Origin: Patescibacteria group bacterium
GTDB taxonomy: Bacteria; Patescibacteriota; Minisyncoccia; Phycocordibacterales; UBA918
Direction of reading: 5' to 3'
Assembly: GCA_019750255.1 (NCBI GenBank)
Contig: JAIEOU010000005.1
Coordinates: forward strand, 14,078 to 78,077
DNA: 64,000 nucleotides
The position numbers were made by a program, and so were the translations under genes. Below are positions 2,242 to 61,626 of the stretch, piece after piece (positions within the stretch are counted from its first letter, which is position 1; each line of letters opens with the position of its first letter). The notes under the pieces were generated by a model. The model made no database searches. It saw nothing but the letters and a program-made list of their open reading frames with translations, and had not been told where the DNA came from.

Positions 2242-3309
2242 ATGGCCGTCGACTACAAGCGAGAACTGAATACGCTCATTGACCTGGTTATCGAAGAGCG
2301 TGCCTCAGACCTGCATTTTTCCGTCGGTGCACATCCGATTATCCGCGTCTCAGGTTCTCTGATTCCCTTGTTAAAAAAACCCATCCTTACCGATGAGGAT
2401 ATGCTCGGCTTTGCTAAGGCGCTCATCAGAAAAGATATCTATGAACGCTATGAAGGACGTAAAGAGGTGGACTTTTCTTTTGAGAATACCGAATCCGTCC
2501 GCTTTCGTGGCAATGCGTACTACCAACGCGGACGTATGGCAATTGCCCTTCGCCTCATTCCGAATGTCATTCGTACTTTTGCGGATTTAAATCTGCCGCC
2601 AATTCTGGAAAGCTTTACTCAGCGGCCACAGGGTTTCTTTTTGTGTGTTGGGCCAGTAGGGCAGGGAAAGTCTACGACGCTTGCAGCCATGGTAAATCAC
2701 ATTAACCAAACTCGTTCGGAGCACATCGTTACCATTGAGGACCCTATCGAGTACGTGTACACCGAAGACAAGGCGCTCATTGATCAGCGTGAAGTGGGTA
2801 TCGATACTGAAAGCTTCCAGGTTGCGCTCAACGCTGCCTTTCGTGAAGACGTTGATGTGATTTTGGTAGGTGAGATGCGGAATATGGAAACTATTTCAAC
2901 CGCCGTAACTGCGGCTGAAACCGGCCATTTAGTGTATTCGACCCTTCACACAAATGACGCCGCACAGACCATTAATCGAATCATCGATACGTTTCCGGGT
3001 GACCAGCAAAGCCAAATCCGCACCCAGCTAGCAGGGTCTCTCATTGCTATCTTCTCGCAGCGACTCATTCCACACATTGCGGGTGGTCTTGTGCCAGCGT
3101 ATGAGCTGCTTATCAACAACAGTGCGGTAGCTAACCTAATTCGAGAAAATCGCGTTCATGAGATTAATTCCGTCATCGAGACTGGGCTTGAGCAGGGAAT
3201 GATTGACATGAATCGTTCTCTGTTACGTTTGGTACAGAACGGAGATATTACCGTAGAGAACGCATTTACCTACTCAACCAACCCTAAAGGTCTCGAACGC
3301 CTCATGTAA
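2242..3309 (+). CDS. pilT: Twitching motility ATPase PilT (pilus retraction)
   Basis: 355 aa. Walker A GPVGQGKSTT, the AIRNLIRE-like C-terminal motif (AVANLIRENRVHEI) and a PilT-typical N-terminus. Confidence 0.85.
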   Translation: MAVDYKRELNTLIDLVIEERASDLHFSVGAHPIIRVSGSLIPLLKKPILTDEDMLGFAKALIRKDIYERYEGRKEVDFSFENTESVRFRGNAYYQRGRMAIALRLIPNVIRTFADLNLPPILESFTQRPQGFFLCVGPVGQGKSTTLAAMVNHINQTRSEHIVTIEDPIEYVYTEDKALIDQREVGIDTESFQVALNAAFREDVDVILVGEMRNMETISTAVTAAETGHLVYSTLHTNDAAQTINRIIDTFPGDQQSQIRTQLAGSLIAIFSQRLIPHIAGGLVPAYELLINNSAVANLIRENRVHEINSVIETGLEQGMIDMNRSLLRLVQNGDITVENAFTYSTNPKGLERLM

Positions 3310-3312
3310 TAT

Positions 3313-4530
3313 ATGCTTTTCAAATACATAGCAATCGATAAGGGGAATGTACAAAGGGAAGGCACCGTTGAGGCGGCCAGTATTGATGCCGCTATTTCAG
3401 CTGTACAAAAGCGTGGCTACACAGTAACCTCGATTGATCCAATTGACGAAAAAGGTTCGATAACTGATTTGCTTAATTTTGATTTTGCAATATTTCACAG
3501 CGTGTCAAACAAAGACATTGTTATTTTGTCTCGACAAATTTCCACGTTGTTTCAAGCGCATGTTTCACCACTGCGTATTTTCCGTCTCCTGTCGGCCGAG
3601 GTAGGAAATGCACAGCTGCAAATTGTAATGAATAAGATTGTTGATGACTTGCAAGCGGGGAGTTCAATTTCTCGGGCTTTGGCGGCCCATCCAAAGGTAT
3701 TCTCTTCCTTCTATGTCAACATGGTGCGGGCGGGGGAGGAATCGGGATCGCTCGAGAAATCCTTTGCCTACCTAGCCGACTACCTGGACCGTTCGTATGA
3801 AATTGTTGCAAAAGCCAGAAACGCTCTAGTCTACCCAGCCTTCGTGGTCACTATCTTTTTTGGGGTGATGGGCCTGATGCTCACCCTAGTAATTCCAAAG
3901 ATTGCCAAAATTTTGACTGACTCTGGGCAGGAGCTGCCGATTTATACAAAGATTGTTATTGGTCTTTCCGAGTTCTTAATTGGCTATCTTCCGTTTATAT
4001 TTATCGGTGTGGCTGCGACTGGGGTGGGGATGTGGCGTTTCGCCCGAACTGATGTTGGGCGCCGGACCATAGACGAGCTGAAAATCTCGCTCCCTGTTTT
4101 CGGTAATCTCCAGCGTAAGTTGTTGCTCACCCGCATCTGTGACAACCTCTCGACGATGCTTTCAAGTGGCGTATCGATGGTGCAAGCGCTCGAGGTGACA
4201 GCTGATGTGGTAGATAATACGGTCTTTAAAGAAATTGTTCAGTCGGCTCTCTTTGAAGTGAAGGGAGGACGGTCGTTTGCTGATTCCATCGCTGAGTATC
4301 CAGAAATTCCAACGGTTCTGTCACAAATGGCGCGCGTGGGTGAAGAAACCGGAAGTCTGTCGGAAATCATGACCACACTCGCCAATTTCTACCGACGTGA
4401 AGTGAACCAAGCAGTGGACACCATGATTGGGCTCATTGAACCAGCTATGATTGTGATGTTGGGTCTCGGTGTGGGTGTGCTCTTGGCATCGGTTTTGATG
4501 CCGATTTATAACCTCACCGGCAACTTCTAA
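3313..4530 (+). CDS. pilC: Type IV pilus inner-membrane platform protein PilC/GspF
   Basis: 405 aa with a duplicated GspF domain architecture and three TM segments. Sits between pilT and pilA. Confidence 0.85.
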   Translation: MLFKYIAIDKGNVQREGTVEAASIDAAISAVQKRGYTVTSIDPIDEKGSITDLLNFDFAIFHSVSNKDIVILSRQISTLFQAHVSPLRIFRLLSAEVGNAQLQIVMNKIVDDLQAGSSISRALAAHPKVFSSFYVNMVRAGEESGSLEKSFAYLADYLDRSYEIVAKARNALVYPAFVVTIFFGVMGLMLTLVIPKIAKILTDSGQELPIYTKIVIGLSEFLIGYLPFIFIGVAATGVGMWRFARTDVGRRTIDELKISLPVFGNLQRKLLLTRICDNLSTMLSSGVSMVQALEVTADVVDNTVFKEIVQSALFEVKGGRSFADSIAEYPEIPTVLSQMARVGEETGSLSEIMTTLANFYRREVNQAVDTMIGLIEPAMIVMLGLGVGVLLASVLMPIYNLTGNF

Positions 4531-4979
4531 GGAGAAACAGGAAGCGGCGAAGCCGCGACCATGTTTTCCTTATGCAGACGCCTCGTTACTTTCGAGCCTC
4601 AAAGCGAGGAAAGTAACGGCGGCGACCTGCGAAAGGAGACTTTGGATTGCTTCGCTGCGGCTCGCAAAGACGAATGCTGAATACGACTGCTTCGTCTCTG
4701 CGAGTTTACGAAGCAGTCCAGGGTTCCATACCCTTCTTTCGATTACATCACTAAGGCTCGCAAAGACGAAATATAATTTAACCCAATCCTACTAAGTAAT
4801 AGGTGCAGGGGCTTACGGTTTATACGGGAGGTTGTCCCCAGGTCTAGTTTTGTAAGCCGAAGCTGGTCGTATAATTGAGGCTAGCTACGCTACAACGTAG
4901 ATCTGTCGTTTACTATTCAGGTACACAGCTGATATCTGAATATAAAAAGACTTTATTTCAAAACGATTAATTTTAATTC

Positions 4980-5477
4980 ATGATCAAAACCATGCGGACC
5001 CGCGGTTTCACCCTCATCGAACTTCTCGTTGTAATCGCTATTATCGGTATCTTGGCCGCAACGGTACTTGCCGCCCTTGGTAACGCGCGAAGTAGCGGAA
5101 ACGACGCTTCGACGCAGTCGCAAGTTAATTCTGCCAAGGCTCAAGCTGAAGTGTATGCTAATGGTAATACAACAGCTCCCGGAAGTTATGTAGGCCTCTG
5201 TACTGCTGCGAACCCCAACAGCTTGGGTACACTCCTAACGGGTATCGCTCGTACTGCGCCCGGTACCGATGCTGCTGTATTGACTGCCACTGTACAGACT
5301 GCTAACACAGACGGTACTGGGGGTTCGATTAATTGCAGGGATGCCGCAACTACTTGGGTCTTGTCTGCGCCTCTTGCTCGCTCTACGGGAGGTTTCTTCT
5401 GTGCGGACAGTACTGGCTTTAGTGGCGTAAGAACCACGCCACTACCAGCAGCCAATACTGCTTGTCCAGCTTCTTAA
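4980..5477 (+). CDS. pilA: Type IV major pilin (prepilin, class III signal)
   Basis: N-terminus MIKTMRTRGFTLIELLVVIAIIGILAA matches the prepilin cleavage/methylation motif (G|FTLIE). Followed by a rho-independent terminator. Confidence 0.9.
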   Translation: MIKTMRTRGFTLIELLVVIAIIGILAATVLAALGNARSSGNDASTQSQVNSAKAQAEVYANGNTTAPGSYVGLCTAANPNSLGTLLTGIARTAPGTDAAVLTATVQTANTDGTGGSINCRDAATTWVLSAPLARSTGGFFCADSTGFSGVRTTPLPAANTACPAS

Positions 5478-5497
5478 CAATCTTACTGGATAAAAAA

Positions 5498-5522
5498 ACA
5501 CCCGTTCACGGGTGTTTTTTTA
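5498..5522 (+). terminator. Rho-independent terminator after pilA copy 1
   Basis: acacccg-ttca-cgggtgt stem-loop followed by T7. Confidence 0.8.
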
Positions 5523-5604
5523 TTGAAAAACCTACTGGGGAAATCCTACATAAGCACAATGGACTGTGTCATGATTAGGATAAACAATAATTCAACATAC
5601 CATA

Positions 5605-6102
5605 ATGCTTAAACAAACTTATCAAAAGGGCTTCACCCTCATCGAACTTCTCGTTGTAATCGCTATTATCGGTATCTTGGCCGCAACGGTACTTGCCGCC
5701 CTTGGTAACGCGCGAAGTAGTGGAAACGACGCTTCGACGCAGTCGCAGATAAACTCTGCCAAGGCTCAAGCTGAAGTCTATGCGACGGGGAATAACAATT
5801 CTTATGATGGGGTTTGTACGATTGCAAGCGCCAATAGTCTGGGTCCATTGCTGACAGGAATTGTAAGGACAGCACCAGGAAACAACACTCCTGTTATTGA
5901 CGGAGCGGTACAGACAGCAAACACCGATGGTACAGGTGGGACTATTAATTGTAATGACGCGCCTACCGCCTGGGCAGTGTCAGCGCCGCTCAATCGATCC
6001 ACTGGCGGATTCTTCTGTGCGGACAGTAGCGGATTTAGTGGAGTTCGTGTGACGCCGTTACCGGCGAGCGGTGCTACGGGTAGAGTGTGTCCTTCATCAT
6101 AA
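5605..6102 (+). CDS. pilA: Type IV pilin, second tandem paralog
   Basis: Same prepilin N-terminus. The first ~150 nt are nearly identical at DNA level to copy 1 (4998-5150 vs 5623-5775), and the C-terminal globular part diverges. Confidence 0.9.
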   Translation: MLKQTYQKGFTLIELLVVIAIIGILAATVLAALGNARSSGNDASTQSQINSAKAQAEVYATGNNNSYDGVCTIASANSLGPLLTGIVRTAPGNNTPVIDGAVQTANTDGTGGTINCNDAPTAWAVSAPLNRSTGGFFCADSSGFSGVRVTPLPASGATGRVCPSS

Positions 6103-6131
6103 TCTGATTCCGTTAAAAACAGGACTACATC

Positions 6132-6156
6132 AAAGAGCGCCACGAGGCGCTTTTTG
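6132..6156 (+). terminator. Rho-independent terminator after pilA copy 2
   Basis: aaagagcgcc-acga-ggcgcttttt. Confidence 0.7.
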
Positions 6157-6249
6157 TAAACTCCAGATTATTTGTGCTAAGCCTATAAGTGTTAATGGCG
6201 CAGCAACAGAAGACTCCTATGGTTAACTTTTGGCCACGGGAAGGGATGG

Positions 6250-7125
6250 ATGGGCTATAATAGGAACGTGTTTAGTCTAGCTACGCTCGGTCTGTCGACC
6301 CTCGTTCTTTCCATTATTGCCTTTGGCTTTGGAGCTATCGTCGGTAGCTTTCTTAATGTGGTGATTTATCGGTTACATACTGGCCGCTCTCTGCAAGGTC
6401 GGTCCCATTGTCTCTCGTGCGCAACTCCGCTCCGAGTGTGGGAGCTCATACCACTTTTTTCATATCTCGGTCTGCGGGGTCGTTGTAGTCACTGCCGGTC
6501 ACGGTTTACTGCGCGCTACTTTGGGGTTGAGCTTTTGACGGCGCTATTGTTTGTGTTGACGATGCTTTATTTTGCGACTGATGTGGTACTGGTCGGTATA
6601 TTTCTCTTTGTGATGTCACTGCTTGTGGTCGTATTTGTCTATGATCTTCGACACATGATTATTCCTGACGAATATGTCGTGGCGCTTACGCTTGCGGCGC
6701 TCGGCCGAGAATTTTATAGTGCGGTCGTTGTGCTCGGAACATGGGTACCGTTTCTCTACAGTGCATTCGCCGCTTCGACTGGGGCACTATTTTTCTACGC
6801 CCTCTGGTTTATGTCTGGAGGAAAATGGATTGGCTTTGGTGATGTTAAGCTCGCTTGGCCACTGGGACTTCTCCTTGGCAGTGGGGGAGTGTTCTCAATG
6901 GTGGTGTTTTCGTTCTGGATAGGGGCGGGGATAAGTCTATTGCTTCTTGCGCTCATGAAGCTCTCTGCCCGCAGTGGGGGAAAACCGTTCTTACCTTTCG
7001 GTCTCGGAACGCTTACAATGAAGAGTGCTGTTCCGTTTGCTCCTTTCTTGATTGTTAGTTTTCTTACAGTTCTTTTTTTCCAAGTTGATGTGCTCGCCCT
7101 TTTATCCTATGACTTCTTCCTCTAG
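6250..7125 (+). CDS. pilD: Prepilin peptidase PilD (A24 family, with N-methyltransferase Zn-finger)
   Basis: 291 aa, polytopic. Two CxxC pairs (CLSCATPL...CSHCRSRF) sit in the first cytoplasmic loop, and Asp-containing motifs are present. Confidence 0.85.
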   Translation: MGYNRNVFSLATLGLSTLVLSIIAFGFGAIVGSFLNVVIYRLHTGRSLQGRSHCLSCATPLRVWELIPLFSYLGLRGRCSHCRSRFTARYFGVELLTALLFVLTMLYFATDVVLVGIFLFVMSLLVVVFVYDLRHMIIPDEYVVALTLAALGREFYSAVVVLGTWVPFLYSAFAASTGALFFYALWFMSGGKWIGFGDVKLAWPLGLLLGSGGVFSMVVFSFWIGAGISLLLLALMKLSARSGGKPFLPFGLGTLTMKSAVPFAPFLIVSFLTVLFFQVDVLALLSYDFFL

Positions 7126-7726
7126 CACGAAGCCATGCAGAGCGCGTCTGCGCGCAGGTTTTGGTCTCATAGAACTCCTTGTGAGCATCAGTATCATGGT
7201 ACTCGTTACCTCGATTGTGCTCGCGCGGCACTCCGCCTTTAGCGGTACCGTACTTCTGAAATCACAGGCATATGAAATAGCGTTACGGCTACGCGAAATA
7301 CAGCTCTCGGCGGTGAGTGTAGCGACTTCGACTGTCGGCATCCGCTCGCACTATGGTATGCGTTTTGGTACAGCGGCTTCAGAAAATAGCGTCTACCCGG
7401 TTTTTGCGACTCCTATCCCAGCGGTCAATGGCTTCTACACTAATAATGCTTATTCTCTTGTTGGGACTCCGGGGTTACTCGATCAGCGCTTTGTGATTAA
7501 AGGAATTGACCTGAACTGCAGTTCTGTGCAATCAGCTACGGGAGTTATTATTATGTTTAAGCGTCCAAACTATGACGCTGAATTCCGAAGTGGGACTGGC
7601 GGAGCGCCGGCCTGCGCGGCTGAGTCAGTGAGTATTAGGATTGGCCCACGTGGTTCCCTCGTTGGTGATACCGCCTCGGAACGACGTGTTGTTGTTTCGA
7701 GCTCAGGTCAAATCACTGTAGAGTAA
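7109..7726 (+). CDS. Minor pilin / pseudopilin (GspH/FimT-like)
   Basis: After trimming to ATG 7109 the N-terminus reads ...RAGFGLIELLVSISIMVLV, a prepilin signal. Overlaps the pilD end. Confidence 0.7.
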   Translation: MTSSSSTKPCRARLRAGFGLIELLVSISIMVLVTSIVLARHSAFSGTVLLKSQAYEIALRLREIQLSAVSVATSTVGIRSHYGMRFGTAASENSVYPVFATPIPAVNGFYTNNAYSLVGTPGLLDQRFVIKGIDLNCSSVQSATGVIIMFKRPNYDAEFRSGTGGAPACAAESVSIRIGPRGSLVGDTASERRVVVSSSGQITVE

Positions 7727-7730
7727 TTTT

Positions 7731-8402
7731 ATGATTCCAACAAAGCTTTCACAGCGACGCGGTTTCACTCTCATCGAGATGATTGTTTCGTTGGGAGTGT
7801 TTTCGGTGGTGGTGACCATTACGGCCGGGGCGCTTATTACCTTAATTGCAACAAACCAGCGCTTTCAGCGTGAGCAAAATACGACAACGAACTTGGCCTT
7901 TGCGCTTGACAGTATGACTCGTGAAATTCGCACCGGGTCAAATTTTTACTGTGCGACCGGCACGGGAACACCTTTTGATAATGGAGCCCATGAACATCTT
8001 TCTGGTGGAGTCATTGACGCAGGGGTTGGCTCATCGTTGCTACGGCGCGATTGTCCAGACGGAAGAAATGGAGAAAGTCTCCATGGGATATCTTTCTTTG
8101 AGGGGGGGAATAGCATCACGACGGACCCGGGGGTTAGGCGTATCCTCTATTATTTTGACCTGACGGCCGGTACTATCTATCGACGTGTCGGGGATGAAAG
8201 GCCAGAACAGATTATTTCAAATACCATTGAAATTGTTGATGCTGATATTTATGTTACCGACACCAACATTATGCTTGCCACACCTGCGGATACAAAACAG
8301 CCCACAGTAACCATTCATATCGAAGCTCGGGATCGTTCTGAGCCAAGTAGTGAGACGTACCTCATGCAAACGACTGTAACGCAGCGGTCACTTGATATAT
8401 GA
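7731..8402 (+). CDS. Minor pilin (PilW/PilV-like prepilin)
   Basis: RRGFTLIEMIVSLGVFSVVV prepilin N-terminus. Confidence 0.7.
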   Translation: MIPTKLSQRRGFTLIEMIVSLGVFSVVVTITAGALITLIATNQRFQREQNTTTNLAFALDSMTREIRTGSNFYCATGTGTPFDNGAHEHLSGGVIDAGVGSSLLRRDCPDGRNGESLHGISFFEGGNSITTDPGVRRILYYFDLTAGTIYRRVGDERPEQIISNTIEIVDADIYVTDTNIMLATPADTKQPTVTIHIEARDRSEPSSETYLMQTTVTQRSLDI

Positions 8403-8993
8403 AAAATCTACTACCCAGCTTATTACAGTTAACGAGACATAAAAATGGTTTTTCACTGGTGGAAACGCTGGTCGCAGTCTCCATCCTTCTCCTTGTTGTG
8501 GTTGGTCCCTTGACGATTACGTCGCGGACGGCGAAAAGTAGCACCTTTTCGAGTGAGCAATTGACTGCTCAATTACTCGCTCAAGAAGGACTGGAACTGG
8601 TGGAAAAAGCGCGTAATGACTACATTCTTGAGAATTTCACCAATGCAGCTAACGGTGGCTGGGATGCATTCACCTCAGGAAGTGGTGTTTTTTCACAGTG
8701 CTTTGACACCGATGGTTGTGGTATCGACATTGAAGATTCTGGTGACATTAACTTTCCATTAAAGGCATGTGATATCGCCGGGAGTCCAGATCCGTGCGCA
8801 CTCTACCAAGGAGCGGCAGGTGAGCGGGCGCGGTATTCGCACACTACCGGTGGTACCCTGACTCCGTTTACTCGCACTGTGCGCTTTTACTCGACCACAA
8901 ATCCTGATCAGATTCGCGTGGAATCAACCGTTACCTGGCGTACGGGTTCCCTGATTGCCAATCAACGGGTAGAGCTCGAGACGTATTTATTTA

Positions 8994-9010
<17 letters not shown>
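8399..9010 (+). CDS. Minor pilin (prepilin-type N-terminus)
   Basis: NGFSLVETLVAVSILLLVVVGP prepilin motif. Overlaps neighbours by 4 nt. Confidence 0.65.
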
Positions 9011-11673
<2,663 letters not shown>

Positions 11674-16940: not shown

Positions 16941-17558
16941 ATGATAAATAAAAGTACCTTACAAAAGTTATATGGTGAAAAAAAGTATTCTTCTGTTCAG
17001 ATAGCTAAGGAGCGTGGCTGTTCACCGGGACAAGTTAATTACTGGCTGTCTAAGTATTGTATTAAGAAGCGATCAATTTCCGATGCGGTATATGAGAAAT
17101 CTAACCCTGGTGGGGATCCATTTAGTTTACTTAAGGTGCGCTCTAAAGAGGAGTGGTTTTTGTATGGTCTTGGTCTGGGGTTGTATTGGGGAGAAGGTAA
17201 TAAAGCTAATCGCCTAGCTGTTCGACTTGGTAACACTGACCCTGGTCTTGTCCGAACGTTTCTTCGTTTTCTCTCGACCATTTACCGTGTTGACACCAGT
17301 CGTCTACGATTTGGTTTACAAATTTTCTCAGATTTAGATCCGGTGGAAGCAAAAGCATTTTGGTCAAAGGAACTTGGTGTAAGTGCTACGCAATTCCAAA
17401 AAACAGCTACAGTCTCTCGAATCCGCCGCGGAACGTACACGCATAAGGCTGCACATGGTGTACTCACTGTTTATTTTTCAAATACTAAACTTCGTGCTAC
17501 TATCATGGCCGCAATTGAAAAATTGCAAAAGCAACAGAACAGTACACTGCCGATGTAG
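16941..17558 (+). CDS. HTH + LAGLIDADG-like (single-motif) putative homing endonuclease/maturase
   Basis: N-terminal HTH (SSVQIAKERGCSPGQVNYWLSKY). The motif GLGLYWGEGNK aligns to LAGLIDADGS (G-L-x-x-G-E-G-N). Its stop lies 10 nt inside the intron-containing tRNA-Thr. Paralog of 53323..53982. Confidence 0.5.
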   Translation: MINKSTLQKLYGEKKYSSVQIAKERGCSPGQVNYWLSKYCIKKRSISDAVYEKSNPGGDPFSLLKVRSKEEWFLYGLGLGLYWGEGNKANRLAVRLGNTDPGLVRTFLRFLSTIYRVDTSRLRFGLQIFSDLDPVEAKAFWSKELGVSATQFQKTATVSRIRRGTYTHKAAHGVLTVYFSNTKLRATIMAAIEKLQKQQNSTLPM

Positions 17559-20991: not shown

Positions 20992-22677
20992 ATGAAAAAA
21001 CTTTCCCGTACCGCAAAAAAGCCAACTGATACACCGATCACTCCTAAGACACCAAAGTACATTTTTGTCGTGGGTGGGGTCATGAGTGGGGTGGGGAAGG
21101 GAGTTGCTGCGTCATGTATTGCGGCAGTGCTCAAAGGTCGTGGACTTACCGTAACTGCGCTAAAAATCGACCCGTACATAAATGTAGACGCGGGTACGAT
21201 GAATCCGACCGAGCACGGCGAGGTGTTTGTCTTAAAGGATGGTCTGGAGACGGATCAAGATATGGGTAACTATGAGCGTTTTCTAAACACCGACCTCACG
21301 AGCCAAAACTATATGACCACCGGAAGTGTCTACCTTTCGGTTATTAAGAAAGAACGCAACCTTGAATACGGAGGCAAGAATGTTGAAGTGGTACCTGATA
21401 TCCCACTTGAAGTGATTCGTCGAATTAAAGAGGCGTCAAAATCGGCCAACGCCGACGTGGCGCTCATTGAAATTGGCGGTACGGTAGGGGAGTATCAAAA
21501 CATTCTTTTTCTAGAAGCAATACGCATGCTCAAGTCAGAACATCCTCAGGATGTGGTCACGGTGATGGTAAGTTATCTCCCGGTCCCTGGTTCAATCGGC
21601 GAGATGAAAACCAAACCCACGCAAACTGCAGTGCGCACTCTGAACAGCGCTGGGGTGTTTGCCGATATGATTATTGCGCGGAGTCCCGTCGGCGTTGATG
21701 ACAAGCGCAAGGAAAAAATTGCCACGTTTTGTAACGTCCGAAAAGAGAATGTAATCTCCGCTCCGGATGTAAGTAGTATCTACGATATTCCGCTCAATTT
21801 TGAAAAAGATAATCTATCATTCCGCCTCTGTGAACTCTTAAACGTACCGTGCTCTAAAACATCTGATTTGGCTGCATGGAAGCGCTTTGTTACTCGTACA
21901 AAAGACGCTAAGAGCGAGGTGACGATTGCGGTTGTCGGCAAGTATTTTTCCACGGGGGACTTCGTTCTCTCTGATGTGTATCTTTCCGTACTAGAAGCAA
22001 TTAAGTACTCAGCTTATCATCTCGATCTTAAGCCGAAGATTGTGTACCGCTCAAGCCTAGATTTTACTGACAAAAAAAAGTGTAAAGAGCTTGATGCGTA
22101 TGACGGGGTGCTCGTGCCGGGGGGATTTGGAAGTACGGGGATTGAAGGGAAGCTCAATGTAATTGAGTATGTTCGTAAGCGAGGAATTCCCTACTTCGGT
22201 ATCTGTTACGGCATGCAGCTTGCTGTGCTCGAGTACGCTAGAAATGTCGTCGGCCTAAAAAATGCGAGCACTGAAGAAATTGACGCTAGTGCAAATGATT
22301 TAGTTGTACACACCATGGCGGAGCAAAGGCTAAAAATAGCCTCTGCTGATATGGGGGGCACGATGCGTCTTGGTGAGTCTGAGGCTATACTCAAATCGGG
22401 CAGCGTGGCACGGCAAGCGTATAAAGCAGCAAAGGTTACCGAACGCCATCGTCATCGGTACGAGATCAATAATGCGTTCGTCGAGCGCCTTACCGATAAA
22501 GGTCTTGTATTTAGTGGCACCTCACCCGACGGTTTACTGATGGAAATCATTGAACTACCCCGGGGTATGCACCCGTTTTTCGTGGGTACACAGTTTCATC
22601 CGGAATTCTTGGCGCGCCCCCTCCGTCCCCATCCACTATTTACCGCTTTTGTGAAAGCCGCCTACGAGCAAAAATAG
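20992..22677 (+). CDS. pyrG: CTP synthase
   Basis: 561 aa. N-terminal synthetase domain (GGVMSGVGKGV) and C-terminal class I glutamine amidotransferase (GICYGMQ, HRHRYE). Confidence 0.95.
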   Translation: MKKLSRTAKKPTDTPITPKTPKYIFVVGGVMSGVGKGVAASCIAAVLKGRGLTVTALKIDPYINVDAGTMNPTEHGEVFVLKDGLETDQDMGNYERFLNTDLTSQNYMTTGSVYLSVIKKERNLEYGGKNVEVVPDIPLEVIRRIKEASKSANADVALIEIGGTVGEYQNILFLEAIRMLKSEHPQDVVTVMVSYLPVPGSIGEMKTKPTQTAVRTLNSAGVFADMIIARSPVGVDDKRKEKIATFCNVRKENVISAPDVSSIYDIPLNFEKDNLSFRLCELLNVPCSKTSDLAAWKRFVTRTKDAKSEVTIAVVGKYFSTGDFVLSDVYLSVLEAIKYSAYHLDLKPKIVYRSSLDFTDKKKCKELDAYDGVLVPGGFGSTGIEGKLNVIEYVRKRGIPYFGICYGMQLAVLEYARNVVGLKNASTEEIDASANDLVVHTMAEQRLKIASADMGGTMRLGESEAILKSGSVARQAYKAAKVTERHRHRYEINNAFVERLTDKGLVFSGTSPDGLLMEIIELPRGMHPFFVGTQFHPEFLARPLRPHPLFTAFVKAAYEQK

Positions 22678-22687
22678 CAGGACGCCT

Positions 22688-22987
22688 ATGATCAAAGAAC
22701 AGCAAGTGCTCGACGAGTGGTTTAAGGCAAAGGGCTGGCCTTACTGGTCTCCGCATGAGATATTGGCGCGACTCATGGAAGAAACGGGAGAATTTGCTCG
22801 TCTCGTTAATCACGAGTATGGTCCGAAGAAGAAAAAAGACGGTGAGGCAACACAAGATTTTGAAGATGAACTAGGGGATATTCTCTATACTCTGGCTTGT
22901 TTTGCGAACACTCACCACATTGACCTCGACAGCGCCCTCGCGCGCAGTCTTGAAAAGGTAGCTGGTCGGGACAAAGACCGCTTCTAA
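22688..22987 (+). CDS. MazG-like nucleotide pyrophosphohydrolase (small single-domain)
   Basis: EETGEFARLV...ELGDILYTLACFAN is the EExxE/ExxD MazG helical motif. Confidence 0.7.
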   Translation: MIKEQQVLDEWFKAKGWPYWSPHEILARLMEETGEFARLVNHEYGPKKKKDGEATQDFEDELGDILYTLACFANTHHIDLDSALARSLEKVAGRDKDRF

Positions 22988-23042
22988 GGCCGGCACTTTT
23001 ATGGTAGTCTTTCGGAGCGCAAATTGCGCACCGAAGCAGATT

Positions 23043-23060
23043 TGGGATATCGTCTAATGG
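23043..23060 (+). repeat. Orphan 18-nt copy of the tRNA-Gln 5' end (direct repeat with 23186-23203)
   Basis: tgggatatcgtctaatgg is identical to tRNA positions 1-18. Its inverted complement gcctttccattagacgg sits at 23150-23166 and forms a ~16-bp hairpin. Confidence 0.8.
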
Positions 23061-23185
23061 AAAGCAAAGCTTCCTTGAACGGCGCTCGCACAATGGATGT
23101 AAGTACTCTTCCATCCCCGTGCTCGCTTGTTCAAGTAGGACAGCGAACTGCCTTTCCATTAGACGGACGGCAGGGTGAAACGTAT

Positions 23186-23256
23186 TGGGATATCGTCTAA
23201 TGGTAGGACAGAGGCCTTTGAAGCCTTTAATTGGGGTTCGAATCCCTGTATCCCAG
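23186..23256 (+). tRNA. tRNA-Gln (TTG)
   Basis: U1-A72 acceptor (UGGGAUA/UAUCCCA), anticodon loop cuUUGaa, T-arm GGGGTTCGAATCCCTG and discriminator G. Resembles E. coli tRNA-Gln. Confidence 0.85.
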
Positions 23257-23262
23257 CTCATA

Positions 23263-23292
23263 GAAAAACAACCACTCTTGTGGTTGTTTTTC
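23263..23292 (+). terminator. Rho-independent terminator after tRNA-Gln (centre of a nested palindrome)
   Basis: aaaaacaaccac-tctt-gtggttgttttt. Confidence 0.8.
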
Positions 23293-23295
23293 GTT

Positions 23296-23321
23296 TATGA
23301 GCTGGGATACAGGGATTCGAA
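23296..23321 (-). repeat. Inverted 26-nt copy of the tRNA-Gln 3' half
   Basis: tatgagctgggatacagggattcgaa is the reverse complement of tRNA 23231-23259. Confidence 0.85.
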
Positions 23322-23433
23322 AAGCGCAGCAATGTGAGGAGCTTTTACTAAAGCGACGAACCAGCGAGCTGGGGTCGAGAGCACTTACTAGAATTGGAGC
23401 GTCAGCGAACAATTATAGTTAGTGACTCGTGAC

Positions 23434-23454
23434 CGAATCCCTGTATCCCAGCTC
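23434..23454 (+). repeat. Direct 21-nt partial copy of the tRNA-Gln 3' half, followed by a terminator-like hairpin
   Basis: cgaatccctgtatcccagctc, then aaaacacccg-tca-gggtgctttt (23458-23481). Confidence 0.8.
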
Positions 23455-23486
23455 GAGTAAAACACCCGTCAGGGTGCTTTTACGTA

Positions 23487-23537
23487 GTGCTGGGATACGT
23501 AAGGTCTGGGAGACCTTGCGTCAGGGATTCGAAACCC
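23487..23537 (-). repeat. Second inverted tRNA-Gln 3' fragment, split by a 23-nt palindromic insert
   Basis: gctgggatac + gtAAGGTCTgggAGACCTTgcgt + cagggattcgaa. Confidence 0.65.
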
Positions 23538-23710
23538 GATTGAGCATAATTTTGCGCGAAGTGAACTATATGTACGATTGCAATAGTCCCTATGGATTTT
23601 TAGAGCCCTTCAGCTCGTTGGATTGTAAAAAATATCGGTCTTAACTGGTGATACACTGATTACTCGAACAGGCACATGTTGATATTCTTTAAATCATACC
23701 GACTCCCACT

Positions 23711-25243
23711 TTGAAACTCATGAGACAAATATTATTTGGCTTTTTACTGCTCCTCGTTTTACCGCTTCCGTTTTTGGCCGATGCACACAGTAATGAAGAT
23801 TTAGAACCGGTCACAATTATAATGACCGAACGCGGCTATGATGTAAAAACTTTAGAAATTGAAGTCGGGCAAAGGGTCATATTTAAGAATGAAGGGTCTG
23901 AGGGCCTTTGGCCGGCATCAAACATTCATCCTACTCACGAAATATATTCAGAATTTGACCCGAAAAAACCTATTCTGCCTGGTCAGTCGTGGGAGTTCAC
24001 CTTCGATAAGGAAGGAGAGTGGAGATTTCACGATCACCTGCTTCCGACCATTGTCGGCACCATCAGAGTTGTGTCCTCAAATGATGTGAGTGTGGAGAGT
24101 AAAGAAGTTCACGGTGAGCGCTCTGGCGTCTTCAGTAAAGTAAAAACATTTTTTGTAAATTTGATTAACTCACTTTTTGCATCCAATCGGTCGACAAGTG
24201 AAGTCGCTGAAAACACTCTGAATCTGCCAACGGTAACAAGGGACACTAAGGAGATTTTTTCAAACGACGAACTCCTTAAGTCATATGTGCAAAGCTTTGG
24301 ACCTAAAGCGACTGTCGAGTATTTGCATGAGCTTTCAGCTGAGTTTGGCGACTGCCATCAAAGCGCCCACGCTGCTGGTCATTTTGCGTATGAACTTTAT
24401 GGTAGCGAAGCGTTTCAAGCTTGTAGCGCTCAGTGTCACTCAGGTTGCTACCATGGAGCAACCGAAGCCTATTTTGGTGAACATGGTACCAAGGACTTAG
24501 CAAAAAATTTGGGTATTATCTGTGGCTCAGTATCCAATCCATTTTTTAGCCATCAGTGCATTCATGGCGTAGGTCATGGTTTAACCGCCTGGACCAGTTA
24601 TGATGTGCCTGAAGCCCTTAGGGCCTGTGACTTGCTTCCAAGCGGGCATGAGTCTTGCTACACGGGTGTTTTTATGGAAAACGTAGTTGGTGGAATTGCT
24701 AAAGATGAAGCAAAAAACAGTGAGGAAACTGCCCATGTTACCCAATACCTAAGTCAAGACCCGCAGTTTCCCTGCACTGTGGTAGATGAGAAATATAAAG
24801 CTTCATGTTACATATTCCAAACGTCTCGAATGGTCCAGTTGTATGATGGGGATTTTTCTAAGGTAGCTAAAGCCTGTCTTGCTGCTCCCGAGCTGTATCG
24901 AGCACATTGTTTCCAGAGTATGGGGCGTGATGTTGGTGGAGTAAATCGGGGAAATCCGAGCAGAGCGATTGCTGAATGTAAACATGTACCAGATGGAAAC
25001 TTCCGTAGTGATTGTTTGGTGGGGGCGGTACAAGATTCATTCTGGGACTCGTCAGGACACGATGTGGCCATAAATTTTTGCAAACTTTTAGTCGATAGCA
25101 CTGAAAAACATCACTGCTATAAAACAATTATTGAACGAGCGCCGCAGGTAATTGAAGCTAAAACCGACCGCCACATATTCTGCAATAAAGTTGAAACTCC
25201 TTTTCAGCAGGACTGTGCTGCAGTCATTGATCTAAACATTTAA
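23711..25243 (+). CDS. Secreted protein: cupredoxin-like N-domain plus degenerate Cys-pair repeat region
   Basis: Signal peptide (LLLLVLPLPFLADA). The N-domain fits a plastocyanin-like pattern (V.G..V.F.N...H...H...PG.S.EFTF..GE..FHDHL.P.IVG.I.V) but lacks the Cys ligand. The C-terminal ~350 aa carry about 8 Cys-x(n)-Cys/His-Gly modules. Confidence 0.5.
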   Translation: MKLMRQILFGFLLLLVLPLPFLADAHSNEDLEPVTIIMTERGYDVKTLEIEVGQRVIFKNEGSEGLWPASNIHPTHEIYSEFDPKKPILPGQSWEFTFDKEGEWRFHDHLLPTIVGTIRVVSSNDVSVESKEVHGERSGVFSKVKTFFVNLINSLFASNRSTSEVAENTLNLPTVTRDTKEIFSNDELLKSYVQSFGPKATVEYLHELSAEFGDCHQSAHAAGHFAYELYGSEAFQACSAQCHSGCYHGATEAYFGEHGTKDLAKNLGIICGSVSNPFFSHQCIHGVGHGLTAWTSYDVPEALRACDLLPSGHESCYTGVFMENVVGGIAKDEAKNSEETAHVTQYLSQDPQFPCTVVDEKYKASCYIFQTSRMVQLYDGDFSKVAKACLAAPELYRAHCFQSMGRDVGGVNRGNPSRAIAECKHVPDGNFRSDCLVGAVQDSFWDSSGHDVAINFCKLLVDSTEKHHCYKTIIERAPQVIEAKTDRHIFCNKVETPFQQDCAAVIDLNI

Positions 25244-52133: not shown

Positions 52134-52211
52134 ATGTCTGATTTAAGACCTTACCAGATACTTTTGAGTTTACGAAAAAGTAGCGACAAGGTGTACTGGC
52201 ACCTGTAAGGT

Positions 52212-52318
52212 GAAGAGTGACTAGATGTCACTCTGCCAGACTCATTGAGAATTTTGCGAGTGGGCGAGCAAAAGTCCAATGAGTGGACAGGCCGCTGTAA
52301 GCGGAAGGGTGACTAAAA
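52212..52318. repeat. Dispersed ~100-nt intergenic hairpin repeat, family B, copy 1
   Basis: atgtcactctgcCAGACTCATTGag...CCAATGAGTggacag..ctgtaagcgg. A second copy is at 54821-54925 with conserved arms and a variable centre. Confidence 0.6.
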
Positions 52319-52580
52319 ATTGTGTATAATAAGGGGTGTAACGACTTTGTTTTTCATATATAGAATGTTCTCCTAGCAGAGAAAATCCTATGCTTCGCTT
52401 GGCACTATCCTGAAATAACGGAGAGTGAAGCTCCGTGGTCTTCGGAGCTATACTCCGCTTGAGTAGGCCAAAAGCATGCTGAGAATAATCACAATAGCAA
52501 TTGCACCCCAAATCCATTTAATGGCCGTTTTTGTGTTTTTGTGAAAAAGGAAACTCATATCAGCAAGCTATTTTTGTAAG

Positions 52581-53322: not shown

Positions 53323-53982
53323 ATGGCAAGTCGCCTTACAAGTGAAGCCGTAGAAGAGATTATAAACTTAAGAAAAACTGGTCATAGTTTGCCAGAGATA
53401 CGGCGAATTACAGGTCGTTCAAACGGTACCGTTTATAATTTGATCTCAAAAACTAATGTTCTGCCAGAATTCGCGTCACTTTTAAAATCAAAGCAAGGTG
53501 GTAGTAAAGAAAGGGCACGAATAGCATGGGAAAGTGCACGCTCTCATGCAAGCAGTATCATTCCCGAAATTTTTTCGCAACAGAGTATTCTTTTAGTGCT
53601 TGCGGCACTATACTGGGGTGAGGGGACGAAGCATGAGCTCAACATAATAAATGGTGACCCTTGTCTGCTACGCACAACCGTTATTGGACTTCGTGCGCTA
53701 GGCGTTCATGATGATGAATTCCGCGTTACGGTTAGGTTGTTTGGAAAGATGCCCGAAGTAGATGCTATAAACTACTGGTCTACAGCTGTTGATGTTCCAA
53801 AACACCAGTTCATAGGTATTGAACGATTGCCGGGTAACGAAAGTAAAAAGCTCCCTCGTGGAATGTGTCGTATCCGAGTTGCAAAAGGAGCAAAGTATTT
53901 CAAACTTATTATGAGTATGATAGATTTGATCAAATCTCAAAATTGCCCTGGTAGTTCAATGGATAGAACTTCGCACTCCTAA
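53323..53982 (+). CDS. HTH + LAGLIDADG-like putative homing endonuclease (paralog of 16941..17558)
   Basis: HTH SLPEIRRITGRSNGTVYNLISKT and motif LAALYWGEGTK. Its last 38 nt overlap tRNA-Arg, and its stop codon lies in the tRNA anticodon loop. Confidence 0.5.
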   Translation: MASRLTSEAVEEIINLRKTGHSLPEIRRITGRSNGTVYNLISKTNVLPEFASLLKSKQGGSKERARIAWESARSHASSIIPEIFSQQSILLVLAALYWGEGTKHELNIINGDPCLLRTTVIGLRALGVHDDEFRVTVRLFGKMPEVDAINYWSTAVDVPKHQFIGIERLPGNESKKLPRGMCRIRVAKGAKYFKLIMSMIDLIKSQNCPGSSMDRTSHS

Positions 53983-54016
53983 CGCGAGAATTCAGGTTCG
54001 ACTCCTGACTAGGGCA
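53945..54016 (+). tRNA. tRNA-Arg (CCT)
   Basis: Acceptor GCCCTGG/CTAGGGC, anticodon loop cuCCUaa and T-arm TCAGGTTCGACTCCTGA. No intron. Confidence 0.75.
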
Positions 54017-54037
54017 CAGAGCTGGTATACTAAAGTT

Positions 54038-54476: not shown

Positions 54477-54549
54477 GCTTGGGTAGCTCAGTTGGTAGAG
54501 CATTTCCCTGAAGAGGAAGGGGTCGCCGGTTCGAGCCCGGCCCCAAGCA
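54477..54549 (+). tRNA. tRNA-Phe (GAA)
   Basis: GCTTGGG-TA-GCTCAGTTGGTAGAGC...anticodon loop cuGAAga...GCCGGTTCGAGCCCGGC-CCCAAGC-A. Confidence 0.85.
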
Positions 54550-54552
54550 CAA

Positions 54553-54594
54553 GAAAAGCGCCTTCGGGCGCTTTTTGCGTGCTTGGGGCCGGGC
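54553..54594. repeat. Terminator hairpin plus inverted 16-nt copy of the tRNA-Phe 3' end (nested palindrome)
   Basis: aaaagcgcc-ttcg-ggcgctttt, then gtgcttggggccgggc, which is the reverse complement of gcccggccccaagcac. Confidence 0.8.
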
Positions 54595-54671
54595 GTGAAG
54601 GGGGTCGGGGAAACAGTTGTTTCCCCGTGGAGGAAGGCAGTGAGCGACGTTAGGAGCGAGCGTTGGAAAAC

Positions 54672-54697
54672 CGTGGGTTTCCAAAGTGCCTGGGCCC
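54672..54697 (+). repeat. 26-nt direct repeat, copy 1 (cgtgggtttccaaagtgccYRggccc)
   Basis: A second copy at 55088-55113 differs at 2 positions. Confidence 0.7.
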
Positions 54698-54820
54698 TAA
54701 GCTATATTACAAACTAATGCACCTTTCGTCCGGGCTCGAACGCCGGAGCGTTGTCACGAGCGTGCTTCCTAGCGCGAGTGATCACGAGGCGCGTCCAGCG
54801 GTCGTAATGACCGTAGCGTG

Positions 54821-54925
54821 AGAAGTGAATAAATGTCACTTCGCAAGACTCATTGAGGCACTATATGAGCGGTAGCGAAATATAGAACCCAATGAGTGGA
54901 CAGCTTCTGTAAGAAGTTAGAAAAA
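54821..54925. repeat. Family B dispersed hairpin repeat, copy 2
   Basis: See 52212..52318. Confidence 0.6.
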
Positions 54926-54931
54926 GCGGGA

Positions 54932-54943
54932 CGAGCCCGGCCC
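54932..54943 (+). repeat. Direct partial copy of the tRNA-Phe T-arm/acceptor (cgagcccggccc)
   Basis: 12-nt identity to tRNA 54532-54543. Confidence 0.55.
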
Positions 54944-54961
54944 TAATATGTAACCAAGCCC

Positions 54962-55042
54962 TGGATTGCTTCGTTGCGACTCGCAAAGACGAGGACCTCG
55001 CCGAGTGGAGGTCGAGCGAGTGAGATAGATTGTGAGCGAAGC
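54962..55042. repeat. Family A dispersed hairpin repeat, copy 2 (ggattgcttcg..ctcgcaaagacga...cgaagc)
   Basis: Shares about a 30-nt core with 4643-4718, plus a half-copy at 4753-4776. Both fold as long imperfect hairpins. Confidence 0.6.
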
Positions 55043-55067
55043 TAAACAAAGTATGCACAAGAGTGAC

Positions 55068-55081
55068 CGAGCCCGGCCCAA
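55068..55081 (+). repeat. Second direct partial copy of the tRNA-Phe 3' end (cgagcccggcccaa)
   Basis: 14-nt identity to tRNA 54532-54545. Confidence 0.55.
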
Positions 55082-55198
55082 CATTCTCGTGGGTTTCCAA
55101 AGTGCCCAGGCCCGAAGCAAATGTATCCTACTAACTTCGAATAAAAAAATATGATATCCGCAAAAAGAAACCGCTCCTTTAGGAGCGGTTGTCTCGTA

Positions 55199-61263: not shown

Positions 61264-61478
61264 TAGTACAGGGTAGCGCGTAAGTGAGTGGAGTCAAGGA
61301 AGGGTGCGGGACTCGACCCGCAATCGCGGATTTTGTTGCGTCTTTAAGAGTAATTATTTACGGACTCGGTCACGAATCACTAAGTATATTTGTTCGTCTG
61401 CGACTCCAAATCTACTAAGTGTTCTTGACCACGGCTCACTGGTTCGTCGCCCAAGGGAAGGGGCGACTCACATCGCTG

Positions 61479-61504
61479 CGCCTTTCGAGTCCTGTGTCGC
61501 GCAC
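61479..61504 (+). repeat. Inverted, degenerate copy of the tRNA-Val 3' end
   Basis: The reverse complement gtgcgcgacacaggactcgaaaggcg matches 61553-61578 at 22 of 26 positions. A nested hairpin (gggtcatgc-aca-gcatgaccc) separates the two copies. Confidence 0.7.
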
Positions 61505-61553
61505 ATAAAGCAAAGAAGGGTCATGCTGTGCATGACCCGACTTATTGCTTTAG

Positions 61554-61626
61554 TGCGCGATACAGGACTCGAACCTGTGACCTCCACAATGTCAATGTGA
61601 TGCTCTACCAGCTGAGCTAACCGCGC
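61554..61626 (-). tRNA. tRNA-Val (GAC)
   Basis: The reverse complement is GCGCGGT-TA-GCTCAGCTGGTAGAGC...anticodon loop uuGACau...GGTTCGAGTCC...ATCGCGC-A. Confidence 0.85.

Follow-up and report, generated by a model that had tools for sequence, protein, structure and literature searches.

The stretch of DNA considered here, hereafter the window, is 64,000 nucleotides (nt) long and comes from a Patescibacteria group bacterium (GenBank assembly GCA_019750255.1, contig JAIEOU010000005.1, positions 14,078 to 78,077 of the forward strand). Its gene for tRNA-Gln(ttg), placed at 23186-23257 by ARAGORN and at 23186-23256 by Rfam (RF00005, 62.8 bits), is surrounded by fragments of itself, and these fragments, together with the family of small structured elements to which they belong, are the subject of this report. 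An earlier note, made from the sequence alone, had described these repeats, and all those it listed are present. The copy of the 5' end is exact and one nucleotide longer than the 18 nt it had given (23042-23060 repeats 23185-23203), whilst the inverted complement at the far end of the following insert is slightly shorter than claimed, being a perfect inverted repeat of 14 nt between 23051-23064 and 23152-23165. Downstream, 23299-23321 is a perfect 23-nt complement of 23237-23259, and the 3' half of the tRNA forms with its inverted copy a long palindrome (39-nt arms, 87%) that spans the terminator hairpin at 23263-23292 and has 23258-23298 as its centre. An exact 21-nt direct copy of 23239-23259 follows at 23434-23454, with a terminator-like hairpin (23463-23476, from a terminator scan) and a run of T on its 3' side, as had been described. 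The second inverted copy, made up of GCTGGGATAC (23489-23498) and CAGGGATTCGAA (23522-23533), is indeed split by 23 nt; the insert is not the perfect palindrome that had been reported, but a hairpin whose stem has 7 bp and whose loop has 3 nt. Chance falls far short of explaining exact repeats of 19-21 nt inside 800 nt.

The inverted copies at tRNA-Gln hold the complement of the genomic trailer CTC without a complement of CCA, and must therefore have been copied from the gene or its precursor rather than from the mature tRNA; the idea of a primer-binding site, which would be complementary to mature tRNA, was rejected on this ground. These fragments make up the arms of three structured modules, all of them small and non-coding: one upstream of the gene (the 5' module) and two downstream, an intact element of type A and a decayed one of type B (Table 1). 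Short-read contigs of close relatives often end within or close to the region (L002, L003, L006, L008; loci are designated by L numbers), as might be expected if repeats had been collapsed or joined into chimeras during assembly, a possibility that the earlier note had itself raised. Against this, an independent assembly of another sequencing run (Logan DRR851322, L001) agrees with the window at 525 of 525 bases over 22988-23512, thereby excluding an assembly artefact, and the same architecture recurs in many unrelated contigs; the probability of an artefact is negligible. Six differences were found in the 2095 bases that L001 covers (21418-23512), all of them substitutions outside 22988-23512.

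Table 1. Features at the tRNA-Gln locus and related elements elsewhere in the window
Feature	Position	Strand	Basis
5' module, whole	23042-23165
5' module, left arm: direct copy of tRNA-Gln positions 1-18 and one preceding base	23042-23060	+	exact 19-nt repeat
5' module, interior: nested hairpins, containing GTAGGACAG, a copy of tRNA positions 18-26	23061-23151	+
5' module, right arm: complement of tRNA positions 9-18 plus AAAG	23152-23165	+	14-nt perfect inverted repeat; pairs with 23051-23064
Intact tRNA-Gln(ttg)	23186-23257	+	ARAGORN; Rfam RF00005
Trailer and terminator hairpin 1 (stem 23263-23275 / 23280-23292)	23258-23298	+	inverted repeats; homologous to terminator of empty site L016
Type A element, whole	23299-23454
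Type A, inverted arm: complement of T-loop, T-stem 3' strand, acceptor 3' strand and trailer CTC	23299-23321	+	perfect complement
Type A, interior: helix P2 with variable hairpin, long arm P3-P4-P5; ends in GTGAC	23322-23433	+	covariance model R1, covariation, folding energy
Type A, direct arm: exact tRNA-Gln copy from T-loop C56 to 3' end, plus CTC	23434-23454	+	pairs with 23299-23319, 21 nt, 100%
Second trailer and terminator hairpin, duplicated along with the tRNA 3' end	23455-23486	+	terminator scan; similar to L016 terminator AAAGCACCCATTCGGGTGCTTTTTC
Type B element (decayed), whole	23487 to about 23600
Type B, 5' end: acceptor complement 23489-23498, hairpin H 23499-23521, T-arm complement 23522-23533	23487-23533	+
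Type B, degenerate interior (ACCCGATTGAGC...), without right arm	23534-23600, end approximate	+
Nested mosaic behind tRNA-Phe (54477-54550), about 540 nt, non-coding	54551-55090	+
Type A element behind tRNA-Val(gac) (minus strand, 61553-61626), at a distance of 58 nt	61360-61494	-	R1 99.4 bits

A conserved three-way junction

Type A elements share one order of parts. A complete gene for a tRNA or for transfer-messenger RNA (tmRNA) is followed by its trailer and a terminator hairpin, and then by a complement of the acceptor 3' strand that extends the terminator palindrome; often after a conserved extra hairpin, the T-loop and the 3' strand of the T-stem follow in complementary form, then an interior of about 100 nt with GTGAC at its end, and finally a copy of the local gene that starts at C56 of the T-loop and sometimes extends through trailer and terminator. 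The fold takes up about 115 nt and the whole unit about 195 bp. It holds no credible gene, the overlapping short open reading frames (ORFs) of about 50-70 amino acids (aa) crossing tRNA, terminators and repeats.

Folding 33 copies jointly with RNAalifold gave a three-way junction, in which the inverted and direct arms pair as the closing helix P1, next to helix P2, which bears a variable hairpin, and to a long arm, P3-P4-P5, in which mismatches are conserved and the internal loops are rich in purines (GA/GAA). A covariance model built from this fold (R1) found 122 copies at E < 1e-6 in 100 sequences, comprising 99 loci and the window, with the element behind tRNA-Gln matched at 23311-23442 (111.3 bits, E 6e-26). 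Across these copies standard pairs fill 95.0% of the paired cells, as against 76.5% in shuffles and 34-44% when partner columns were slid; all 36 pairs show changes on both sides, and the covariation score of 0.470 (0.151 in shuffles) was reached by none of 500 shuffles, in an alignment that was fitted to R1 and so favours the structure. An independent MAFFT alignment still yielded compensatory changes in 19 of the 36 pairs. G-U or U-G pairs outnumber A-C or C-A pairs by 144 to 55, and the plus strand of the tRNA-Gln element is predicted to fold 13 kcal/mol better than the minus strand (-81.6 kcal/mol, z -11.1, versus -68.2 kcal/mol); both results point to folding of the tRNA-sense strand. The folded molecule may be either RNA or single-stranded DNA; mini-hairpins with a GNA loop, as GCGAAGC in P5, are stable in both.

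A search of Rfam 15 at the gathering threshold returned only the tRNA, one with 22980-23720 at E values up to 10 added chance matches alone, that with the locus L127 returned no match, and the group I intron model (Intron_gpI) had no match at the tRNA-Gln locus at E up to 10. No promoter for the type A element was seen. When metagenome contigs were scanned with a 23-nt pattern for its right end, TATANTTAGTGAYTYGTGACCGA, at least 120 of them gave a match; metagenomes from groundwater and similar settings commonly contain the family. The same pattern had no match in 2.9 million viral contigs, and BLAST of the element against a phage and a plasmid collection found nothing. Two other viral pattern scans gave chance matches only, all lying inside coding regions. 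The family appears to be without a match in Rfam or in the three viral, phage and plasmid collections searched. It is widespread in Patescibacteria and apparently undescribed, no description having been found in the open-access full-text literature, with an earlier description elsewhere possible.

Arms that follow the neighbouring gene

Among the 122 copies, 76 have a tRNA or tmRNA gene on the same strand within 450 nt upstream, at a median gap of 70 nt; a tRNA on the opposite strand precedes only five, and 23 have too little upstream sequence. These neighbours, which share the orientation of the element, cover 15 amino-acid specificities and 26 anticodons as well as tmRNA, the gene behind which the element of L123 lies. 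The arms are copies of the gene next to them: over the 12 bases after the shared CGA, the direct arm agrees with its own tRNA at a mean of 9.1 positions, and at all 12 in 27 of 66 cases, compared with 4.7 of 12 in a mismatched control using the tRNAs of other loci. A regenerated target with its displaced 3' fragment as a direct repeat occurs at 66 loci.

The interior behaves differently from the arms. Copies whose arms, on both sides, derive from different genes share 92-97% identity over the entire interior, variable hairpin included, as is the case between L074, behind tRNA-Ser, and L030, whose arm resembles the 3' end of tmRNA (96.9%), or between L032, behind tRNA-Gln, and L086, whose arm resembles the 3' end of tRNA-Glu (94.9%); no upstream gene was called in L030 or L086. 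Near-identical interiors between arms of different tRNAs imply that the arms are formed anew from whichever gene is targeted, and that the element has moved between tRNA species many times. Neither a carried attachment site nor a vertically inherited RNA gene predicts this combination. Loss of the acceptor part of the arm from copies that keep the interior is frequent, as behind tRNA-Val and tRNA-Phe in the window and in L073 and L099. The direct repeat varies in length, from 12 nt at the tRNA-Phe locus and 21 nt at tRNA-Gln to at least 43 nt in L140, where it covers the entire trailer and terminator, and a terminator often lies 3' of the direct arm. Nested and tandem copies occur in L019, L134, L127 and L139 and at the tRNA-Phe locus of the window.

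Relatives at tRNA-Gln and an empty site

The CTP synthase of the window is 100% identical to an NCBI protein assigned to a Patescibacteria group bacterium. Syntenic loci were fetched through homologues of the neighbouring genes for CTP synthase and MazG, and the distribution of the element among them is patchy. L010 and L011 carry type A behind tRNA-Gln, 79% identical over 276 nt, in genomes whose CTP synthase is 81% identical; related elements stand behind tRNA-Gln genes with differing acceptor stems in L009, L014 and L019, and in each both copies match their own tRNA, so that the arms at this one gene track four different acceptor stems. L016 has a tRNA-Gln identical to that of the window, followed only by a terminator and then by the next gene, and thus represents an empty site. 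Its terminator resembles both of those in the window and is homologous to the one behind the copy at 23434-23481; the duplicated unit must therefore have run from the T-loop through the terminator, which L140 supports. The empty site bears out that part of the earlier note which saw insertions recorded at tRNA-Gln. Its further reading, of repeated insertion and excision, does not stand: the fragments are not scars of attachment (att) sites left by larger elements but the paired arms of conserved structured modules. Relatives keep them as a folded unit (the 79% identity of L010/L011, with compensatory changes in all 36 pairs across the family), the outcome that the note itself had named as refuting its view.

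Other copies in the window

Elements lie behind three of the eight tRNA genes in the window and are absent behind the other five. Self-comparison by BLAST aligned 23353-23436 with the minus strand at 61450-61366 (83.5% identical), which is the type A element behind tRNA-Val; the layout there is the same, with tRNA, terminator hairpin, inverted 3'-end copy and conserved stretch, and its inverted arm is a copy of tRNA-Val (GTGCGCGACACAGGACTCGAA), not of tRNA-Gln, the direct arm having decayed after CGAGTCC. The mosaic behind tRNA-Phe has two inverted copies (54579-54594, 54730-54740) and two direct arms (CGAGCCCGGCCC, at 54932 and at 55068), along with a module of type B recognised by homology and a weak type A match at 54975-55075 (R1 20.6 bits).

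Type B has its own order of parts, namely acceptor complement, hairpin H, CGT, T-arm complement and ACCCGATTGAG, which is repeated in L100, L116, L009 and L139. The copy at tRNA-Gln aligns with other type B elements at its 5' end, the 3' half having diverged, and the stem of hairpin H shows compensatory changes relative to L100.

The upstream side of tRNA-Gln mirrors the downstream layout, with a copy of positions 1-18, a structured interior of about 90 nt and a complement of positions 9-18. Homologous 5' modules lie upstream of tRNA-Gln in L006 and L039; the pairing of the arms is kept in all three sequences, and compensatory changes were seen in 9 of 39 predicted pairs, a count that comes from three sequences only. 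Partial copies of the 5' part precede 13 tRNAs in the fetched loci, with varying lengths and various modules.

Origin of the mosaic

Taken together, these observations suggest that mobile elements gave rise to the mosaic. These would be small and non-autonomous, with no coding capacity, would fold as single strands and would insert at tRNA and tmRNA genes; we assign this reading a probability of roughly 0.5. More tentatively, and at less than even odds, type A may represent a new class of gene-less mobile element, in which a conserved core of about 100 nt would travel in the form of a folded single strand and rebuild both arms from its target by switching at the T-arm and the terminator, leaving the tRNA intact and giving a closing stem that imitates the host gene. 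The geometry offers some guidance as to how this might happen. The copies run direct, inverted, direct, and the first turn would lie in the terminator loop and the second at C56, in the palindromic TCGA of the T-loop. One route would be snap-back or template-switch synthesis at these two hairpins; another would be a single-stranded circle, composed of the 3' part of the tRNA, the terminator, the inverted arm and the interior, that recombines with the gene by exchange of one strand at the junction of positions 55 and 56, for which strand exchange by phage CTX at dif provides a model. Either route would spare the tRNA and make insertion harmless, which would explain how an essential single-copy gene can serve as target; the direct repeats could recombine and so remove the element cleanly, which would account for empty sites; and the interior would be conserved if its fold had to be recognised by a trans-acting factor.

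Several observations weigh against mobility in this form. No enzyme, autonomous relative or excised form was found, so that we infer movement only from the distribution of copies. Both routes are reconstructions from geometry and deserve far less confidence than the mobile-element reading itself. A tRNA is missing upstream of 22 of the 122 copies where the sequence would have sufficed to reveal one, and in L121, L127 and L091, and similarly in L024 and L029, type A is preceded not by a tRNA but by a conserved fragment of about 60 nt (...CATCCCCCAACC.CTCAAACACAGTTCGAAC.TCCTCTACGACGGCGCCCA), which directly follows a protein gene, belongs to no Rfam family and was not called by ARAGORN. In L140 and L129 the direct arm is perfect and the inverted arm decayed, which is unexpected if both were made together and suggests that gene conversion took place later or that the direct copy is under selection. 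Away from any tRNA, at 52138-52325, two tandem type B modules with an H-type hairpin between them directly follow a gene; type B is therefore a general interspersed repeat. Lastly, conservation of the tRNA-Gln interior at 81% CTP synthase identity fits a host RNA gene under long-term selection at least as well as a recent insertion.

Such host genes form the most probable of the alternatives. Non-coding RNA genes might stand behind many tRNAs and be transcribed in the tRNA sense, with a closing helix that mimics the stack of acceptor and T-stem, or an inverted arm that pairs with the tRNA precursor, so that enzymes of tRNA maturation would act on the RNA to process or regulate it. Strong purifying selection on a single-strand fold, the excess of G-U pairs on the tRNA-sense strand, GA/GAA-rich internal loops of a kind common in RNA-protein sites, the terminator often found after the direct arm, the persistence of the element at tRNA-Gln in relatives at about 80% CTP synthase identity and the agreement of its arms with four different tRNA-Gln acceptor stems would all suit this explanation. 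It is nonetheless unlikely, since vertical inheritance of genes would not be expected to yield near-identical interiors carrying arms of different tRNAs, nested or tandem copies, or orthologous sites that are empty; since the frequent loss of the acceptor part of the arm (tRNA-Val and tRNA-Phe in the window, L073, L099) means that tRNA mimicry cannot be essential; and since there is neither a visible promoter nor an Rfam family, nor an element behind five of the eight tRNAs in the window.

The mobile-element reading has also to be set against two explanations that require no new element. Islands or prophages with an integrase might have integrated repeatedly at the T-loop of tRNA-Gln and left att scars on excision or internal deletion: islands classically leave a regenerated tRNA and, as a direct repeat, its displaced 3' fragment, a signature stated in the Islander paper (PMC4383910), the junction does lie in the T-loop, and one truncated right end (L043/L047/L104) stands beside a restriction-modification island. 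Yet no integrase was found in the window, an absence already remarked upon in the earlier note and confirmed for integrase and transposase Pfam families in 30 mid-size ORFs, nor was one found next to any copy examined. The 195-bp unit is equal in size at more than 100 loci, an inverted copy and a covarying fold are foreign to att sites, the arms change with the target whilst the interior does not, and the phage, plasmid and viral collections hold no copy; the att-scar reading is thus largely refuted and we regard it as quite improbable. The T-loop is reportedly a known sublocation of integrase sites (Williams, 2002). Errors of replication, in which spontaneous template switching at the terminator and T-arm hairpins yields tandem inversion duplications, would account for the direct-inverted-direct layout, for junctions at two natural hairpin centres and for the extension of the terminator palindrome by the inverted copy in most loci; duplications of matching geometry are said to have been described in Salmonella by Kugelberg and colleagues in 2010. 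As the sole cause such errors are highly improbable, since they leave unexplained the conserved interior of about 100 nt, its 36 covarying pairs and the same junction at more than 100 loci, although they may still describe how the arms are made. A terminator snap-back as the whole story was likewise discarded, with a conserved interior, and often an extra hairpin, lying inside the arms.

Relation to known systems

Type A shares with integrase islands of the Islander type the 3' part of a tRNA or tmRNA as target, a junction in the T-loop, a regenerated gene and a displaced fragment as direct repeat. It differs in being only about 195 bp long, without integrase or credible gene, in having an extra inverted copy of the target, in a repeat length that ranges from 12 nt to more than 43 nt, and in arms that differ between near-identical elements instead of coming from a carried attP. 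Miniature inverted-repeat transposable elements (MITEs), repetitive extragenic palindromic (REP) sequences with their REPIN and BIME mosaics, Correia elements and Rickettsia palindromic elements are likewise small, non-coding, multi-copy, rich in hairpins, modular, nested and intergenic near terminators. Elements of the MITE or REPIN type possess constant terminal repeats of their own and short target duplications of fixed length; type A has neither, its ends being copies of the neighbouring tRNA, and its core is a three-way junction with strand-specific covariation.

Parallels in geometry also come from the attP(+) site of phage CTX and the attC sites of integrons, which share with type A a stem of two inverted copies that imitates a double-stranded target, a strand-specific site and the order target copy, inverted copy, loop of about 100 nt and target copy, the type A stem having been folded in silico. 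The target of type A is a tRNA T-loop and the sequence of its stem changes with the target, which sets it apart, and we know of no link between type A and Xer or an integron integrase. Tandem inversion duplications share the direct-inverted-direct triplication with junctions at hairpin centres, found here in the terminator loop and at C56, but are sporadic, unstable and without a conserved insert, whereas type A always carries its conserved interior at the second junction.

Genes for Y1 (IS200/IS605-type) transposases at 9053-9721 of L009 and 145-813 of L073 are flanked by inverted repeats of the GGGGACAGGCAC type, in the manner of REP-associated transposases, and these repeats are unrelated to the tRNA-linked elements; no Y1 relative with the end hairpins of type A was found in either locus, and a link to IS200/IS605 through the L009 gene, which lies near tRNA-Gln, was dropped on account of its own, unrelated flanking repeats. 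The notion of a scaffold and guide resembling omega-RNA, of the TnpB type, was rejected by reasoning: a filled site still holds an intact tRNA, which would be a target in its own right, and the neighbourhood has no gene of this type. Group I introns interrupt the anticodon loop of tRNA genes in the same phylum, at position 35/36, and splice themselves out (PMC13011429, the paper closest in subject among those found). They resemble type A in phylum, in the kind of gene targeted, in being structured, RNA-like elements and in leaving the tRNA functional; type A, at about 115 nt and with no match to the group I model, leaves the tRNA uninterrupted.

Patescibacteria have tiny genomes with little spare DNA, and yet three of the eight tRNAs of the window carry such elements. 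Should the arms be rebuilt from the target at each move, the elements could insert into essential genes without harm, by a mechanism outside the known transposases, integrases and introns; should the folded form be RNA, a mimic of the acceptor and T-stem could enter the tRNA processing pathway. More immediately, the elements explain tRNA fragments that confuse annotation and the breaks of contigs beside tRNA genes, and a fold with 36 covarying pairs can be used directly for mapping the family.

Further observations

Two tandem type A-like copies, 100% identical, lie behind tRNA-Leu(cag) in L046 (3435-3559 and 3652-3776), with a right junction unlike the usual GTGAC-CGA. The truncated type A right end shared by L043, L047 and L104 has a decayed tRNA-Ser-like arm and stands beside methyltransferase, endonuclease-like and ATPase genes grouped in one block, and the 8.5 kb upstream contain no tRNA; the restriction-modification island of L043 had been considered as cargo, and was rejected as it adjoins only this remnant. 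Upstream direct copies of the 5' part of a tRNA, 12 to about 45 nt long and with various inserted modules, were seen in L085 (103-321), L023, L074, L078/L100, L092, L093/L128, L110 and L115, and in L085 the upstream unit, including a promoter-like region, is repeated in tandem. Beyond the tRNA-Val element of the window, at 61300-61335, lies an orphan fragment resembling a T-arm, GCGGGTCGAGTCCCGCACCC, which has no match among the eight tRNAs called in the window.

Two homing-endonuclease-like genes adjoin other tRNAs of the window, one of them only weakly similar. An ORF of 219 aa (53323-53982) ends 38 nt inside tRNA-Arg(cct) (53945-54017) and has 373 homologues; among the 120 listed, none has a LAGLIDADG or other informative Pfam family, and the few listed with a source name are all from Patescibacteria. 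Homologues lie directly upstream of tRNA-Arg, tRNA-Gln and tRNA-Met in L063, L008, L010/L011 and L136, and the family has a weak second member in the ORF at 16941-17555, next to tRNA-Thr. L136 also has a group I intron at 8095-8322 (Rfam RF00028, 67 bits) in a locus with a type A element, in agreement with reports of frequent group I introns in Patescibacteria. The window further encodes a type IV pilus cluster at 2242-9638, with secretion ATPase, platform protein, prepilin peptidase and pilins; type IV pili serve DNA uptake in some bacteria and may have a bearing on the spread of small elements.

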